Source: a virus
Taxonomy: Duplodnaviria; Caudoviricetes
DNA: 41,315 nt
IMG/VR virus record: IMGVR_UViG_3300030433_002981
Location: 1 to 41,315 of that record
Strand: one strand, 5' to 3'
Part shown: one piece after another, positions 3,050 to 15,991 of the stretch
Position numbering within the stretch: the first letter of the stretch is position 1
Layout: every line of letters begins with the position of its first letter
Program-made: the position numbers and the translations under genes
The notes under the pieces: generated by a model
The model's input: the letters and a program-made list of their open reading frames with translations, nothing else
Database searches by the model: none
What the model was told of the DNA's origin: nothing

Positions 3050-3264
3050 TGATCTTGCGCGCACCAGAGATAATCCCAACGTGGTACAGGTATTGGGTTG
3101 AGTTCATCGATGAAGACGATGTTCAAAAATCGATGTACTTGTACGGCCAGAGCGTGGAGGAAATCAAAGTGATCATGAATGAATACAAAATTGTTGTAAT
3201 CGATAACACAGAAGTTGCAGAGCAACCGTATTGGAGATGGAGAGAAGTCGATGTTAAATCTTAG
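3049..3264 (+). CDS. Hypothetical protein
   Basis: TAATG coupling and GGAGG RBS. Confidence 0.65.
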   Translation: MILRAPEIIPTWYRYWVEFIDEDDVQKSMYLYGQSVEEIKVIMNEYKIVVIDNTEVAEQPYWRWREVDVKS

Positions 3265-3436
3265 AATTCGTTTTGTGGACAGCAGAGAAGACTTAGTTGT
3301 CCCATGCCCAATCAACTACGGAAACTACTGGAACATGTTCCAGTATCTATCTGAGTTGTTACGCACCAGATGCATTCATGAAGATGAGATCAAGGACGTA
3401 AACACCACTGAGCTTCCGCTTACTGAGGTCGCATAG
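3251..3436 (+). CDS. Hypothetical protein
   Basis: ATG at 3251 in frame with track ORF 3215..3436; fills the operon. Confidence 0.5.
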   Translation: MLNLRIRFVDSREDLVVPCPINYGNYWNMFQYLSELLRTRCIHEDEIKDVNTTELPLTEVA

Positions 3437-5195: not shown

Positions 5196-5651
5196 TTATG
5201 CCTCCCATTTGAGTTTCTGTTGCAGCGGATGAGTGTCCACCCTGGGCCGACTAGGTGTATTCCACCCTCGATTTGCAGTGCTTGTCTGGCCAACACACCG
5301 CCATCCTGCGCCTCGTAGACTAGCACCGCCCTCTGACTCTAGCGTGTAGGTAATCAGGCTTGTGTATCCCATAGCTCGCGCAGCTTTCCACGCTGTTGCG
5401 TAAAGCATCGAGCAAGCGTTTCTTGTGCCGTCTGTGCAGCACCGATTGACCTCAAGCGTCCAGCCATTATCAAGATGCCGGGCCACAGGCCTGCCGACTA
5501 TAACTACGCCTCGCACCACATCTTCCTCTGACACAGCTACACAGAACTTTGCGCCCGGCACTGGCTTGTGATGCCGATGATGCTCAGCCACAAAAGCATT
5601 TGCCTCATCCAAGTTGATGGGGGTGACAGCCATCTTGCTCACACTCCACAC
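5196..5651 (-). CDS. XF1762-family (Mom-like, GNAT-fold) protein
   Basis: ANAFVAEHHRHH, VGRPVAR, LEVNRCCTDGTRNACSMLY, ITYTLESEGGASLRGAGW motifs; start may be 5633. Confidence 0.75.
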   Translation of the reverse strand: MWSVSKMAVTPINLDEANAFVAEHHRHHKPVPGAKFCVAVSEEDVVRGVVIVGRPVARHLDNGWTLEVNRCCTDGTRNACSMLYATAWKAARAMGYTSLITYTLESEGGASLRGAGWRCVGQTSTANRGWNTPSRPRVDTHPLQQKLKWEA

Positions 5652-6442
5652 ATCCCATCACACTCGTCACCAAAGTCCATCACAATCTGATCCGCTGCCG
5701 GGTCAGCCAGGTCTGCTTCATCAAGCGGCACAAGTGATCGGTGTATGTAGATCTTGCTTGTTGTGCCACGAAAGTCATCGCGTATGTGTTTGTCCACAGC
5801 AACCGCTTGCTCCCATGACTTGGGATCATTGGCCTTCATCTCACGCCATGTTTTGTTGTCATGGTAGGGGCAGAATGTGCACGCGCTTTTGCGCGGCAGT
5901 TCGTTGTATCCGTTGTCACGCATCCAGCGCAGGCAATGCCACCGTGACATATGCCTTTCAATCAAGGGCCATCGGTTGTTGCACCATTTCTCTGGCGCGT
6001 CTTTCATCCGCTGTATCTCATCGGTGCTGATACCTATCCACTGCTCGACTGTGTCTGCCGGGATACGCTGGCGCGGTTTGTATCCTGCCAGTTCGCGTAG
6101 CTTGCGTTGGATCGGCGTGATCTTGTAGTCGCGGGTACACTGACGCATGAGTATGCCTTCGCCGACCCCGCTTGGTGATGCAGTGAAGAACGGCGGTGAT
6201 GCGCTACGGTCCTCTGGGTTCATGATGTCATCGAGCAGACTGCCTCGCGTCACACGCAGCACAGGGAACGGCAGCTGACTTTCTAGCCAGTCAAGCCATT
6301 CGTAGATGTGATCAGGTTCTGATTGTGTGTCTGCAAAGATCGCATAATCAGGCATGGGCGTGATCTCACCCTTCGCTGCCATCAATGCCATCACGCTCGA
6401 CTGTACACCTGCGCCCAAGCTAATTACTGTGAGCTTGCTCAT
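5639..6442 (-). CDS. PAPS-reductase-like PP-loop nucleotide-binding protein with Cys clusters
   Basis: N-terminal ISLGAGVQSS, FADT, RQCTRDYKI, IGISTDE, KSACTFCPY and terminal ECDGMCGV. Confidence 0.75.
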   Translation of the reverse strand: MSKLTVISLGAGVQSSVMALMAAKGEITPMPDYAIFADTQSEPDHIYEWLDWLESQLPFPVLRVTRGSLLDDIMNPEDRSASPPFFTASPSGVGEGILMRQCTRDYKITPIQRKLRELAGYKPRQRIPADTVEQWIGISTDEIQRMKDAPEKWCNNRWPLIERHMSRWHCLRWMRDNGYNELPRKSACTFCPYHDNKTWREMKANDPKSWEQAVAVDKHIRDDFRGTTSKIYIHRSLVPLDEADLADPAADQIVMDFGDECDGMCGV

Positions 6443-10874: not shown

Positions 10875-11213
10875 ATGAACACCGAAACAAAACAAGAACT
10901 GCGCCAACAGATCGAAAGCCTGGAGAGCAGGATAGTTGAGTTGCAGGAGCAAAATCATCTGCGCCGTCCTAACACAATCGTCCTCACAAACGAGGAGGTT
11001 GCTCAGATCCTAGACCTGATTGGTAGAGCCAAAAGGGACGTTGGGGATGACATACATGAGCATGAAGTAGCTGACGATCTGAGCAGTAGTGCACAGATTG
11101 CTCTGTATCAACACGAATGTTCGTTGGAGTTGTTGTGCAAAACGATCACGAATCAGTGTGAATCTGAGTTTGCATTTAGAACTGAAACGCAGAAAGTTGA
11201 AGTAAGGATTTAG
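10875..11213 (+). CDS. Hypothetical coiled-coil protein immediately upstream of tas
   Basis: 112 aa, AAGGGA RBS, N-terminal heptad repeat. Confidence 0.75.
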   Translation: MNTETKQELRQQIESLESRIVELQEQNHLRRPNTIVLTNEEVAQILDLIGRAKRDVGDDIHEHEVADDLSSSAQIALYQHECSLELLCKTITNQCESEFAFRTETQKVEVRI

Positions 11214-11222
11214 GAGAACAAG

Positions 11223-12092
11223 GTGAAAGATCTATCAGTACAAAATGCGATGCTCAAGGCATCAGTGAACGGCTTCTACAGCATGCAGAAGACACGCATT
11301 CGGATCGGCAACAACATCGTTGCCAACTTCAAGATCAAGATCGGGCAGGAGCCTGGCAAGCCTGAAGAAACCTTGGATGCAGATGCAAAGATGCTGCTAT
11401 CTAACCTTCGTGTCAGCTACAAAAAGATCACCGATGGTGTTGCTGGCATGAACCCTCGCAAGTTCAAGGAAGATGGTTTGATCAGTGAGTACAGCGAGTT
11501 CTCTTTGGTCAAGCAGTACTTCGATCTGGTCGAGGCTGAAGAGAATGCGCTCAAGCAGATTACCTACAGCGTCAAGCAGTTCCCCATCTATCAAGCATTC
11601 CTAGAGGATGTGAAGGGTGTGGGCCCAACCATGGCTGCGGTGATCATCTCAGGCTTTGATATTCACAAGGCGCAATATGCGTCTTCTTTGTGGGCGTATG
11701 CCGGGCTTGATGTGGTTGGCGACAAGGGCAGGTCTAGGATCAAAGAGCACTTGGTTGATCAGACTTACATCGATGCTGAAGGTAAAGAGCAGACCAAGAA
11801 AGGTATCTCGTTCAATCCGTTCATGAAAACGAAGCTGATCGGCGTGCTTGGCTCGTCGTTTGTAAAGACCAACGGTAAGTACCGTGAGATCTACGACAAC
11901 TACAAGCATCGTATCACCCACATGCCTGCTCATGCTGAGAAGACCAAGGGGCACCTCAACAACATGGCGATACGCTACACGGTGAAGCGGTTCCTTGTGG
12001 ACTTGTACACCGCATGGCGCACGCTAGAGGGACTGCCGGTTGCGGATGAGTATTCCAAAGGCAAGCTTGGGATCAATCACAAGGTTGCTTGA
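11223..12092 (+). CDS. tasA: TIGR-associated (Tas) Nop-domain RNA-binding protein, nuclease-lacking (TasA-like); IS110 C-terminal domain homolog
   Basis: Coiled coil (YSMQKTRIRIGNNI) then LEDVKGVGPTMAAVII...SSLWAYAGL...FNPFMKT...HLNNMAIRYTVKRFL, the IS110/Nop fold; no N-terminal DEDD RuvC, no HNH, no IS110 'SG' serine loop; the stop codon abuts a 36-nt dual-repeat array; AGGAG RBS. Confidence 0.85.
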   Translation: MKDLSVQNAMLKASVNGFYSMQKTRIRIGNNIVANFKIKIGQEPGKPEETLDADAKMLLSNLRVSYKKITDGVAGMNPRKFKEDGLISEYSEFSLVKQYFDLVEAEENALKQITYSVKQFPIYQAFLEDVKGVGPTMAAVIISGFDIHKAQYASSLWAYAGLDVVGDKGRSRIKEHLVDQTYIDAEGKEQTKKGISFNPFMKTKLIGVLGSSFVKTNGKYREIYDNYKHRITHMPAHAEKTKGHLNNMAIRYTVKRFLVDLYTAWRTLEGLPVADEYSKGKLGINHKVA

Positions 12093-12816
12093 GCCATACC
12101 GTCTGAGAAAACCAAGATCAGTAAGCGAGCCAGACGAATGAAGAAACCCAAGGTGCAAGAGCGAGCCAAGTAATTTTAGAAAACCAGTGGCAGAAAGCGA
12201 GCCAAGCGCAGTGAGAAAACCATTAATACAGAGCGAGCCATTTCAGCGAAGACAACCAGCGAAGTCGAGCGAGCCAGAGATTTTGAGAAAATCAGCTCTC
12301 CGGAGCGAGCCAAGGATTTGTAGAAAACCAATCGAAAAAAGCGAGCCAGAGCGCGGGAGAAAACCATTTGTCGAGAGCGAGCCATTCGAATTTAGAAAAC
12401 CACCTAGATAAAGCGAGCCATAGACGCGAAGAAAACCAGGCTTACGAAGCGAGCCAGGAGTTTGTAGAAAACCATCGAAATGAAGCGAGCCAATAAGAGC
12501 AAGAAAACCAACCAAGTGGAGCGAGCCAGAGTTATAGAGAAAACCAGAGCCGAAAAGCGAGCCAGAAGGACATAGCAACCCGTCTTTACGAAGCGAGCCA
12601 CAGCGTAAAAGAAAACCAGTGACTAAGAGCGAGCCAAGTTGAAAGAGAAAACCTCAAGTCGTAAGCGAGCCATATCAGAAGAGAGAACCAAGAACCAAAA
12701 GCGCGTCATTATAGTAGAGCGGCCCAGGTCGAGTAAGCGAGCCAAGGATTTGTAGAAAACCAATCGAAAAAAGCGAGCCAATAGGGTGGAGACCCCCAAA
12801 AGGACATAGCGAATCA
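12088..12816 (+). repeat. TIGR array: 20 units of 36 nt (edge repeat AGCGAGCCA, 9-nt spacer A, loop repeat AGAAAACCA, 9-nt spacer B)
   Basis: Exact 36-nt period without indels from 12088 to the terminal edge repeat at 12808-12816; 18 of 21 edge repeats and 12 of 20 loop repeats are perfect; spacers vary except unit 7 = unit 19. Confidence 0.92.
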
Positions 12817-12827
12817 AACAAACAAGA

Positions 12828-13109
12828 GTGAAAGTTATGAAAGATGACTTTGAAATGGAAATGGAAGGCGGCAGTGAGGATCACGAGTACGCCATGGACT
12901 TGATCAGAAACTTGGTGAAGGTCAGCAAAGAAGAGCTAGACCCACGCATTCTGTTTGAAGTCATGATGGTCTATTCGCTGGGTTGGAACATGGCCCACGG
13001 CGACCATGACCTTATGACCAAGCTATTGCCAAATGTCTTGGACAGCATCAATGATGGTTCTTATGCCGATGTGGCAGAAATTATGGAGGAAGAAAGGATA
13101 TGTCACTAG
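12828..13109 (+). CDS. Hypothetical acidic protein
   Basis: 93-aa ORF directly after the array (start 12828 or 12837). Confidence 0.7.
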   Translation: MKVMKDDFEMEMEGGSEDHEYAMDLIRNLVKVSKEELDPRILFEVMMVYSLGWNMAHGDHDLMTKLLPNVLDSINDGSYADVAEIMEEERICH

Positions 13110-13258
13110 CAACAGAAGACTCATCTAAGTTCGCAGAACGTAAACGTGCCGTGCTGCGATGCATCTACAAGTCACCAGAAGACAGCTGGGCCAAGAACTA
13201 TTGGCGCAATACCTATCGAAAACTCATGGAAGAACGAAGAAAGCGCATATGGAACTAA
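13100..13258 (+). CDS. Small basic hypothetical protein (52 aa, not in the ORF track)
   Basis: MSLATEDSSKFAERKRAVLRCIYKSPEDSWAKNYWRNTYRKLMEERRKRIWN; AAGGA RBS; overlaps both neighbours. Confidence 0.6.
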   Translation: MSLATEDSSKFAERKRAVLRCIYKSPEDSWAKNYWRNTYRKLMEERRKRIWN

Positions 13259-14922
13259 GGTACTATCAGCGCGAGGCCGTTGATGCAGCGGTCCACTGGT
13301 TCAACACCCAGGACACGCATCCGCTCATCGTTCTACCGACAGGGGCTGGCAAGACAGTTGTCTTCGCCACACTGATCAAGGAGATCTTTGAGCGGGAGCC
13401 AGACTGCAGGATTCTGATCCTAGCTCACCGGCAAGAACTGGTCAGCCAGGCAGAAGATAAACTCAAGAAAGTATGGCCATGTGCGCCGTCAGGCATCCTG
13501 GCTGCGGGTTTGAATCAATACGAAGTCGATGGGCGTATCGTCATTGCCAGCCGAGATACCTTGGCTACGCCGACTAGACTCAACACCGTTGGCGACTTTG
13601 ACTATATCATCGTGGACGAGGCGCATCATGTTGCGCCAGATCCCAAGACCCGGTATCGCAAGATCTTTGATCACTTTGAATCATCTATCTGGAGGACGCC
13701 GCGCATACTGGGTGTGACCGCTACACCCTATCGTATGGGCCAGGGCTTCATATACGGCCTTGAGGAGCACTTCTTTTCAGGGGTTGCCTACCGTATAGGC
13801 ATACCTGAAATGATCCAACAGGGCTTCCTGTGCCGTCTGTCGGCCTTCAAGGTAAACGATGAGGCTGTGATCGATGCATCAACTGCGCGGGTCAAGTTCA
13901 AGGGCGGCGACTATCGCGAGTCGGACATCGAGAAGCTGGCCATGGAAGATCAAACCATGCTGGCCATCATCGATGATTGGGTAGAGAAGGCATACACCAA
14001 AGGCCGACTGAGCACAGTGTTCTTTTGTATCACGGTGGCTCATGCAGAAAAGATGTGCATGTATCTCAGGCGAGCAGGCATAGAGGCTGCAGTTGTGACC
14101 GGCGAGACTCCAAAGAGAGAACGCGAAGATATCTTGGAGCGTTTTGAAGACGGCCAGATCAACGCGCTGTGCAACGTTGCCGTGCTGACAGAGGGTTGGG
14201 ATGCGCCACGCACAGACTGTATCGCGCTGCTGCGTCCCACCAAGTCGCTAGGCTTGTACGTTCAGATTTGTGGACGAGGCATGCGCACCTGGGGTGACAA
14301 GAAAGACTGCATGCTTCTGGACTACGGCGAAAACATGGATAGGCATGGCTGCATAGACACTGCTCGTCCATCGATCCCAAGCAAAGAAGACAAAGAGAAA
14401 GAACAAGAAACCAAGATATGGATATGTGACTCGTGCTTGGGCGTCAACGATTCAGATCGTGACACATGCATTGAGTGCGGTGCCTTGAAGCCAGCGCCTA
14501 TCGAACAGCCAAAGCTATTTGAGCAAGACAAGGATGCGGCATCAACACGCATGGCTGCGAGCGGCTCTGTTTTATCTGATGAGCTTCAAGATCCCGTGCA
14601 GGTGCATGAGCGCATCAAGAACGTAGAGTGGGTTTCAGCTGAGTTAAAAACATCGAAGAATGGCAACGACTATCTCAATGTTATGTTTTTAAGTCCCGGC
14701 GACTATTGGCCACAAAACATGCCAATCATGATCGGCATGAAAGGTAAAGCTGGCACGATGGCAGAGAAAAAGTGGCGATCACTAACCAACGGCTTCCCGT
14801 GCCCAACTAACATTAATCACGCTGTTGATCTGGTGAAACATGTAAAGGTGATGAGCCACATCAAACAAATCACTGTAAGAAAAGAAGGAAGATACTGGAA
14901 TGTCGTTAGCGTCCATTTTTGA
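13249..14922 (+). CDS. Superfamily 2 DEAH helicase (RadD/YejH-like) with Zn finger
   Basis: LRYYQ Q-motif, PTGAGKT, DEAHH, TATP, LTEGWD, QICGRGMR, CxxC...CxxC; likely start MELRYYQ at 13249. Confidence 0.9.
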   Translation: MELRYYQREAVDAAVHWFNTQDTHPLIVLPTGAGKTVVFATLIKEIFEREPDCRILILAHRQELVSQAEDKLKKVWPCAPSGILAAGLNQYEVDGRIVIASRDTLATPTRLNTVGDFDYIIVDEAHHVAPDPKTRYRKIFDHFESSIWRTPRILGVTATPYRMGQGFIYGLEEHFFSGVAYRIGIPEMIQQGFLCRLSAFKVNDEAVIDASTARVKFKGGDYRESDIEKLAMEDQTMLAIIDDWVEKAYTKGRLSTVFFCITVAHAEKMCMYLRRAGIEAAVVTGETPKREREDILERFEDGQINALCNVAVLTEGWDAPRTDCIALLRPTKSLGLYVQICGRGMRTWGDKKDCMLLDYGENMDRHGCIDTARPSIPSKEDKEKEQETKIWICDSCLGVNDSDRDTCIECGALKPAPIEQPKLFEQDKDAASTRMAASGSVLSDELQDPVQVHERIKNVEWVSAELKTSKNGNDYLNVMFLSPGDYWPQNMPIMIGMKGKAGTMAEKKWRSLTNGFPCPTNINHAVDLVKHVKVMSHIKQITVRKEGRYWNVVSVHF

Positions 14923-15991
14923 TCGGATCGATGAGCAACTAGCGGAGAAAGAAAACCGCTTTCGTGGCCATCTTGGGTTCAGCGGCATTGGTGATGACGA
15001 TGAATACAAACTGTGGATGGGCTTCCGCTGGTGCTTACCGGCAAGCTTCAGCGGTAGGATGCTGCGGCTGTTTGATCTAGGCAACCGCATTGAGGACCAG
15101 GTGGTCGAGAACATTCGTAACACCGATGTTATCTCCATCGCCTCACATGACAAGGACGGCAACCAGTTTCGTGCATCGTTCTTTGGCGGGCACTTCGCAG
15201 GCTCTTGTGACGGCCTCCTCAAGGGCGTTCTGCCACCCCCTAGCGAAGAGGTGATCTTGCTGCTGGAAGTCAAGAGCGCCAACGACAAGCGGTTCAAAGA
15301 GCTCGTAAAGCTTGAAAGCTACGAAGCCTGGAGTGAAACCTATCGATGGCAGATCCATGCTTACATGGGTGCGCTTGGCCTGAACAAGTGCATGGTAGTT
15401 GTAGTCAACAAGAACGACAGCAGTGTGTACACAGAGATCATCGACTTCAATACACAGGTTTGGGAAAAGGCGCAAGCCAAGGCGCAGCGTATCATCTGCA
15501 GTGACGCACCTGACAAGAGCACGCGCATGTCAGAAAAAGACTGGCGCATGAAGAACGAGTCGGAGTTGTATCGCAACATCTACTTTGGTCGCCGCCTGCC
15601 TGAATCGGTCAACTGCAGGAACTGCAAGAACGTGAAGCCACTGACTGAATCAAACGGTGCCGTTTGGTACTGCTCACGAAGCAACAGAGCCATACCTCTT
15701 GAAGAGCAGAAACTGGGCTGCAAGGACCACCTGTGGATACCAGAGCTTGTGAATGCAAACCATCTGCCGGGCAAAAGCACAGAGGATTCTGTGGCTTATC
15801 AGGTTGGGATCATGGAGTTCTACAACTCAACGTCTGAAGTGACAGGTGAGTATCACTACAGCAGCGTAGAGATGCGTGAACTATCTAAGGCAGACTTTGA
15901 AGCGGGCTTAATGATGACCGGCGAGAGCGTGAGGCGTGAGTTTCCTGGCAGCTATCTTGAGAATGTTGACGAGCGCAAGATGCCGTTTTAG
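14900..15991 (+). CDS. Cas4-like / PD-(D/E)XK phage exonuclease
   Basis: HLGFSGIG, G...E, GSCDG, LLEVKS, QIHAYM, C-terminal NCRNC. Confidence 0.8.
   Translation: MSLASIFDRIDEQLAEKENRFRGHLGFSGIGDDDEYKLWMGFRWCLPASFSGRMLRLFDLGNRIEDQVVENIRNTDVISIASHDKDGNQFRASFFGGHFAGSCDGLLKGVLPPPSEEVILLLEVKSANDKRFKELVKLESYEAWSETYRWQIHAYMGALGLNKCMVVVVNKNDSSVYTEIIDFNTQVWEKAQAKAQRIICSDAPDKSTRMSEKDWRMKNESELYRNIYFGRRLPESVNCRNCKNVKPLTESNGAVWYCSRSNRAIPLEEQKLGCKDHLWIPELVNANHLPGKSTEDSVAYQVGIMEFYNSTSEVTGEYHYSSVEMRELSKADFEAGLMMTGESVRREFPGSYLENVDERKMPF

Follow-up and report, generated by a model that had tools for sequence, protein, structure and literature searches.

A nuclease-less TasA protein and its TIGR array in a marine phage: a probable stand-alone RNA-guided roadblock

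TasA, a solo Nop protein, is the commonest form of the Tas proteins (Faure et al., 2025, PMC12045711). What such a protein does when it has no domain for cutting DNA is the question raised by the open reading frame at 11223..12092 (+) of the window, that is, the whole stretch of 41,315 nucleotides analyzed here. A first-pass annotation had proposed either an RNA-guided repressor or roadblock, or an adaptor that recruits a partner in trans, and had considered the function of these proteins largely open. Part of the answer has been published: 36-nt guides were shown on FpTasA and a block of transcription or replication was proposed as the action of TasA (Faure et al., 2025, PMC12045711), and reversible, guide-specific repression together with DNA binding was reported for MbTasA, a stem-loop type (Xu et al., bioRxiv 10.64898/2026.09.09.750476). 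"Largely open" still applies to the natural role: Xu et al. describe both the natural targets and the spacer acquisition of TasA as unknown, and no target was found here. As the TasA class, its lack of a nuclease and repression have all been described, the observation itself is not surprising.

The window is a linear contig of a tailed phage, 41.3 kb long, with 48% G+C and an estimated completeness of 77%. Its capsid is 57-70% identical to the capsids of Pelagibacter phages HTVC023P and HTVC027P, of DSL-LC04 and of Roseobacter phages CRP-901/902, and the sequencing runs that contain the tas locus are marine. These nearest cultured capsids belong to phages of differing hosts, and the capsid gene was absent from all five genome bins tested. 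The genes on the + strand are ordered as a Sak4-like annealase, an SSB, a 112-aa ORF (10875..11213), tasA, the TIGR array (12090..12816), ORFs of 93 aa (12828..13109) and 52 aa (13100..13258), an SF2 helicase (13249-14922) and a Cas4-like exonuclease (14900-15991), the downstream neighbors together constituting a core replication module (12828..15991, +). No excess of sigma-70-like promoters was found. Contigs from two metatranscriptome runs extend over tasA and array pieces of relatives, although contigs cannot show transcription. Elsewhere in the window, a PAPS-reductase-like gene (5639-6442, -) lies directly after a primase-polymerase gene.

The tasA gene begins with GTG, 3' of a ribosome-binding-site-like AGGAG (11212..11216, +) with counterparts before the start in most relatives listed, and encodes 289 aa comprising only a coiled coil and a Nop domain. 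Sequence matches in the PDB were limited to TaTasR (E 1.5e-13) and SpTasH (E 4.9e-7), and with an AlphaFold model of the protein (mean pLDDT 78.6, from a 15-row alignment) TasH/TasR chains filled all top ten Foldseek rows. Model residues 1-286 superpose on residues 61-298 of SpTasH (PDB 9W04; Z 20.4, rmsd 3.0, 220 aligned), residues 5-275 on 110-303 of TaTasR (PDB 9MTY; Z 18.7) and residues 4-269 on 124-314 of the IS110 bridge recombinase IS621 (PDB 8WT6; Z 14.3). SpTasH and TaTasR, 27-29% identical to TasA, also come with dual-repeat arrays, but they cut DNA through an N-terminal HNH or RuvC domain. Residue 1 of the model pairs with TasH residue 61 and residue 5 with TasR residue 110; since the alignments begin past the nuclease domain in TasH, TasR and IS621 alike, TasA starts where the nuclease domains of these proteins end. 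Its first helix spans residues 2-39, and the region of residues 2-117 (11226..11573, +), with model helices 2-39 and 89-117 and alignment to TasH/TasR, is a predicted dimerization scaffold; judging from the TasR structure (PMC12045711), TasA would be a dimer.

A nuclease domain hidden upstream was also sought. Only three codons are open 5' of the tasA start. In 75 loci the 5' end is intact and the upstream sequence reaches 700 bases; there is room for an extension of at most 38 residues in 74 of them and of 67 residues in one. Besides the 112-aa ORF no long frame lies between SSB and tas, and the IS110 DEDD RuvC family PF01548 had no match at E<=1 in the contig (estimated 77% complete), while the control matched in 10/14 genomes. 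The claim that the protein starts directly with a coiled coil, without DEDD RuvC or HNH, was thus borne out, and the frameshifted RuvC that had been named as a sign of a broken IS110 was found neither upstream nor elsewhere in the contig. The searches returned 701 homologs. Of the best 120 of these, 115 have 278-301 aa and five are shorter; homologs of 302-506 aa, where TasR/TasH forms are expected, could sit among the 581 matches not listed. A search of proteins of >518 aa, in which the 7,999 best candidates were scored, gave 12 long TasA homologs that carry inteins or inserts and, by Pfam, neither RuvC nor HNH. With a coiled coil and Nop domain homologous to Tas proteins, and without the N-terminal RuvC or HNH nuclease domain of TasR/TasH, the ORF and its 20-unit array are a TIGR-TasA system, an already known class. 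Among cultured phages, homologs occur in phiRSL1 (NC_010811.2, 13234-14181; 35% identity over 97% of the length) and Microcystis phage Mvi-JY20 (21442-22026; 29% over 79%), one of them annotated as 'transposase'.

The same label was given to the protein by PHROG, and it brings up the possibility of a broken IS110 transposase, for which a weak PF02371 match (E 0.003, below the cut-off) and the IS621 fold match also speak. IS621 indeed shares a homologous RNA-binding fold (14% identity) and a YAGL-like motif with TasA, but TasA differs from it in having no DEDD RuvC, no PxxxxSG and a guide array instead of one bridge RNA, and no insertion-sequence ends were seen. Against 13 relatives of at least 90% identity, the dN/dS of tasA is 0.009-0.070 (synonymous sites saturate at 85-90%); together with the uniform length, this indicates at the sequence level that the gene is under purifying selection, intact and no relic. 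A TIGR array adjoins it, and no RuvC accompanies it. In L216, the TasA-less relative whose junction was inspected closely (3245-3345; compared with window 11170-11250 and 12790-12870), the 112-aa gene is joined to the last half unit of the array, consisting of the last spacer and the terminal repeat, and then comes the 93-aa gene. This junction looks like the scar of a cassette lost by deletion and not like the clean empty site of an insertion sequence. A broken transposase is, on this evidence, hardly credible.

The segment after YAGL had been described as an insertion in the place where IS110 has its PxxxxSG loop. The segment exists and the IS110 motif, read from a fetched IS110 (WLGLVPRQHSSGG), is absent, as is a PxxxxSG catalytic-serine loop after GL; the segment is nevertheless an ordinary Tas wedge loop (residues 163-197; 11709..11813, +; low pLDDT at 167-174), made up of a conserved G169-R170-S171 and a clade-specific beta-hairpin at 177-195. 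The statement that there is no catalytic serine loop is right with regard to the motif, but it overlooked the near-invariant S171, kept in 122 of the 127 homologs with a readable motif. G169 is preceded by Lys, Ala, Gln or Glu in 117/127 homologs and by Ser in 1/127, the IS110 column being matched by eye; an hhalign comparison with the IS110 fragment ended at L162, too weak to place the loop. In IS110 the serine is not known to act without the DEDD RuvC site. That site is absent from TasA. As the active nucleases TaTasR and SpTasH also lack the IS110 motif, only the extra hairpin of about 18 residues (strands 177-183 and 189-195 in the model) is special to the clade. In TasR the wedge loop parts the displaced DNA strand (PMC12045711).

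Several long homologs vary around this loop. P0122, P0123, P0126, P0129 and P0131 carry large non-intein inserts, without Pfam match, in the wedge or later loops. A LAGLIDADG intein occupies one site, the YAGL motif with Cys at the Ala position, in 8 of the 12 long homologs (P0121, P0123, P0124, P0125, P0127, P0128, P0130 and P0132). The word 'intein' does not occur in the main text of two TIGR surveys, and no paper on inteins in Tas proteins was found in a literature search whose coverage mostly excluded subscription journals.

A second candidate catalytic element lies at the C-terminus, where a loop with Y277, K281 and H286 (12048..12089, +) holds a probable guide-RNA-processing pair. SpTasH uses Y289 and H296 to process its guide precursor, a reaction that needs no metal (PMC13421893). 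The three TasA residues are kept in at least 95% of 116 sequences and the Tyr/His motif is present in 111 of 115 full-length homologs. Y277 aligns with SpTasH Y289, while H286 is offset by two residues from H296, the Tyr-His spacing being 9 in TasA and 7 in SpTasH; with this alignment, it is probable that Y277/H286 cut the guide RNA of TasA itself. The strand-opening pair of SpTasH (W203/K211) is conserved in part: K215 is retained, but a conserved Gly207 stands in the place of the aromatic residue, and the DNA may thus be opened differently than in SpTasH. The presence of S171 and of Y277/H286 means that "no nuclease" is valid for DNA only. A cryptic DNase within the Nop protein itself, suggested by eight acidic residues conserved among the homologs and by S171, is very unlikely, given a model without a nuclease fold in which everything aligned to the non-nuclease part of TasH/TasR.

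The array (12090..12816, +) was parsed as 20 units of 36 nt with 19 distinct guides, the units at 12304 and 12736 being identical. Each unit consists of an edge repeat AGCGAGCCA, a 9-nt spacer A, a loop repeat AGAAAACCA and a 9-nt spacer B. The first edge is truncated and overlaps the tasA stop, and the last edge is degenerate. Across the window the edge 9-mer has 18 exact occurrences, all of them in phase, far beyond chance. Both repeats start with AG and finish with CCA in most units, corresponding to boxes D and C, which covary in the published model; with alternating edge and loop repeats, 9-nt spacers and a 36-nt period, the array is of the dual-repeat type. Arrays were parsed beside 79 of 105 Tas-bearing loci, not counting whole-genome pieces that repeat a locus; many of the others end at a contig edge or have repeats that the parser overlooked. 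About 300 bases interrupt the array in L005-L007 (L005:2821-3125), and in L001/L002 an extra stretch separates the array from the 93-aa gene.

The closest described system is that of FpTasA (PMC12045711), likewise a solo Nop protein in a phage host. The array downstream of it also has 36-nt units in which edge and loop repeats alternate, 9-nt spacers, a CCA box C and truncated end repeats. By comparison with its published description, box D is AG in both repeats here and UG there, covariation being described as usual; the wedge hairpin is longer here; and no terminator-like site was found after the array, the next ORF starting 11 nt past the last edge. MbTasA and PlTasA (Guan et al., 10.64898/2026.08.11.744272, for the PlTasA structure) also lack a nuclease domain, and guide-directed DNA binding has been reported for both and repression by the protein alone for MbTasA. 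As described, they have stem-loop guides, no Tyr/His loop and the aromatic, whereas the present protein has dual repeats, the Tyr/His motif and Gly207.

The adaptor branch of the earlier proposal had named the flanking small ORFs, the helicase and the nuclease as partners. The arrangement is suggestive, with the same strand, short gaps, no terminator-like site after the array, and both small ORFs, the helicase and the Cas4-like gene in 10/10 informative loci (Tas loci with 3.5 kb downstream, genes being sought within 6.5 kb) at TasA identities of at least 95%. All four were missing from the 43 informative loci below 95%, a split without exception, although the loci are not independent, as contigs recur in two collections and the phages are related. 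The 112-aa ORF was upstream in 2/10 loci at 95% identity or above and in 2/61 below (loci with 1.2 kb upstream). Among 57 Sak4-to-helicase loci, obtained from the best 80 of 164 Sak4 matches, only two carry tas; the other 55 module copies hold the helicase (55, by selection), the 93-aa ORF (29), the 52-aa ORF (41) or a homolog of the 112-aa ORF (11). The four near-complete TasA phages have virion genes in common with the window, but not replication genes. The cassette is therefore an accessory two-part module in a replication operon, with most copies of that module (55/57) doing without it, and the adaptor branch with the named neighbors did not hold up. The 112-aa ORF was rejected as a dedicated partner, being found in few loci and also in TasA-less copies, and so were the 93-aa and 52-aa ORFs, the helicase and the Cas4-like gene. 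That any of these acts in cis as effector or spacer-acquisition module is accordingly a very improbable reading.

The slot upstream of tas is variable, with 29 gene groups among 76 loci; the commonest, a family of 220-246 aa, fills it in 17 loci and was also seen in more than 30 loci without tas. A mosaic coiled-coil gene family (L009:9305-9988, L004:2402-3124, window 10875-11213) appears in this slot with and without tasA. Several of these genes have N-terminal residues in common, and the two tested had no Pfam match.

A partner could also be unlinked, with the wedge hairpin 177-195 or the G-R-S171 loop recruiting an enzyme of the host or one encoded elsewhere in the phage. Conservation is high in the hairpin and its flanks (of 116 sequences, at least 95% keep Y182, G187, K192, G194 and F197-F200), the HNH domain of SpTasH is recruited by a different hairpin (10.64898/2026.08.11.744272), and some TasA loci are described as operonic with ParB-like genes (PMC12045711). 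Set against this, no co-occurring gene family spanning the TasA clade was found, the wedge tolerates inserts of 100-200 residues (P0123, P0129, P0131), and stem-loop TasA represses in E. coli without a partner (bioRxiv 10.64898/2026.09.09.750476). Recruitment of an unlinked enzyme is unlikely on balance, although it retains some weight. The last of these reports, in which a stem-loop TasA alone repressed an E. coli reporter reversibly and guide-dependently, lends support to the repressor or roadblock branch of the first-pass annotation. As a counterpoint, it concerns the stem-loop type; for dual-repeat TasA, the published activity found comprises guide processing and weak activator fusions (10.64898/2026.07.30.739400).

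The guides of these loci turn over fast. The 79 arrays contain 63 distinct guide lists. Arrays beside tasA genes of 97-100% identity mostly have 0-9 of 12-21 units in common, often in different order, and the common units are spread along the array and not clustered at one end. Of the 225 guides that recur in at least two loci, 109 come with a loop that departs from the consensus; for 89 of the 109, this loop is identical in every copy (counting duplicate records). The window unit at 12124 is identical in L020 and L021, whose tasA genes are 87% (dS about 3) and 82% identical to that of the window. Reshuffled order, co-inherited odd loops and a unit common to diverged tasA genes point to an exchange of whole 36-nt units between arrays; for units common to diverged tasA, strong conservation of a few old units is an alternative. 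The degenerate repeats of the two most widely shared units (12556-12591 and 12700-12735) travel along with them across TasA proteins of 82-100% identity. Guide variant sets had been read by eye as synonymous changes in a coding target, a reading dropped after a null codon-frame test (26/50 pairs synonymous-like, null 25.9); with no synonymous-like pattern, drift or non-coding targets fit equally.

Targets were searched for as spacer A followed by the reverse complement of spacer B, a geometry derived from the published cut geometry. Against 1.19 Mb of Tas-bearing loci and genomes, 643 guides found nothing when up to one mismatch was allowed; at two mismatches there were 21 matches, compared with 25-31 in five control geometries. 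Similarly, a search of 1.53 Mb of kin loci with 400 close-clade guides gave 0 matches at 0-1 mismatch (controls 0-3) and 14 at two mismatches (controls 17-25), and no guide matched at 0-1 mismatch in the window or the four near-complete TasA phage genomes. As guides match neither the phage nor its kin, self and kin targeting is unlikely, and host or other non-kin DNA is left by exclusion. Self-regulation, in which guides would time the genes of the phage itself, was named as a possibility in the repression preprint (bioRxiv 10.64898/2026.09.09.750476), and the contig is only about 77% complete; against zero close matches, also in the kin loci, and near matches no commoner than in control geometries, it is highly improbable. 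Slightly better placed, though still quite unlikely, is an architectural role, in which a sharp DNA bend would aid recombination, replication or packaging at guide-chosen sites instead of silencing. It was proposed from a bend of roughly 180 degrees (PMC12045711) and suits the position amid Sak4, SSB, helicase and Cas4-like genes, but the guides do not match phage or kin, the position of the cassette is lineage-specific, and no integrase was found among the 26 window ORFs scanned.

Searches beyond the kin were equally sparse. Exact scans of IMG/VR with four guide patterns covering 11 variants gave 7, 2, 0 and 6 stretches; the viruses concerned are unrelated, and they are not enriched in matches to a second guide. 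As about one virus lineage was matched per variant, even for variants present in no array, these are read as chance. One weak lead is G006, a 56.8-kb phage (L025:10001, L288:97), in which the start codon of a head gene coincides with an exact match to a sister variant of the 12556 guide, and the window guide at 12484 also matches with two mismatches; this lies within chance, since a hand estimate for 400 guides predicts about one such second match. A single guide common to many arrays, at one mismatch or less, matched in 2 of 401 bacterial genomes (control 6 matches) and 5 of 68 (control 5), the 469 genomes belonging to groups chosen through genome bins with TasA contigs instead of through a known host. 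The complete chromosome of Sporomusa aerivorans contains, in a region resembling a prophage (L045:9326-10876), a TasA of 48% identity whose array of 14 units lies upstream and has an identical edge repeat; one guide pair had no match in the chromosome, and 14 guides had none within two mismatches in 260 kb surrounding the prophage. The literature search, whose coverage mostly excluded subscription journals, found no paper on natural TasA targets.

The reading we favor, and consider probable, is that of a roadblock on non-self DNA that is directed by guide RNAs, acts alone and probably processes its guides itself. By analogy with characterized relatives, tasA and the array would be co-transcribed; a TasA dimer would bind the CCA/AG boxes and cut the transcript in each edge repeat, probably through Y277/H286, to release 36-nt guides. 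Each guide would pair, without need of a PAM, with both strands of an 18-bp site, in which spacer A is followed by the reverse complement of spacer B. The displaced strand would be held by the wedge loop, and the bound, non-cutting complex would block RNA polymerase and possibly also replication. What is left by exclusion alone is that the targets would be genes of the host or other elements that share its cell, and that arrays may be refreshed by swapping whole 36-nt units between co-infecting phages. A bolder version, which is speculative and unlikely as a whole, would have the phages of this abundant marine group draw on a communal guide pool, silencing about 19 host or satellite sites simultaneously, swapping units in co-infection and recruiting a host enzyme through the hairpin. 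If true, such a pool would represent natural multiplex gene silencing without adaptation machinery.

What this locus adds to the known class is population evidence on array turnover and the ruling out of the proposed partners, although the locus tables of two TIGR surveys may already list the clade, its arrays or its inteins. TasA would be a compact, PAM-free putative binder of 289 aa, probably self-processing, of a dual-repeat type for which a published repression test was not found. The clade provides 63 distinct guide lists, near-identical proteins with mostly different arrays, units common to diverged genes and relatives that have apparently lost the cassette, and its member in Sporomusa aerivorans is a culturable system for target tests. 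These resources ease tests of the natural targets of TasA and of how arrays change without adaptation genes.
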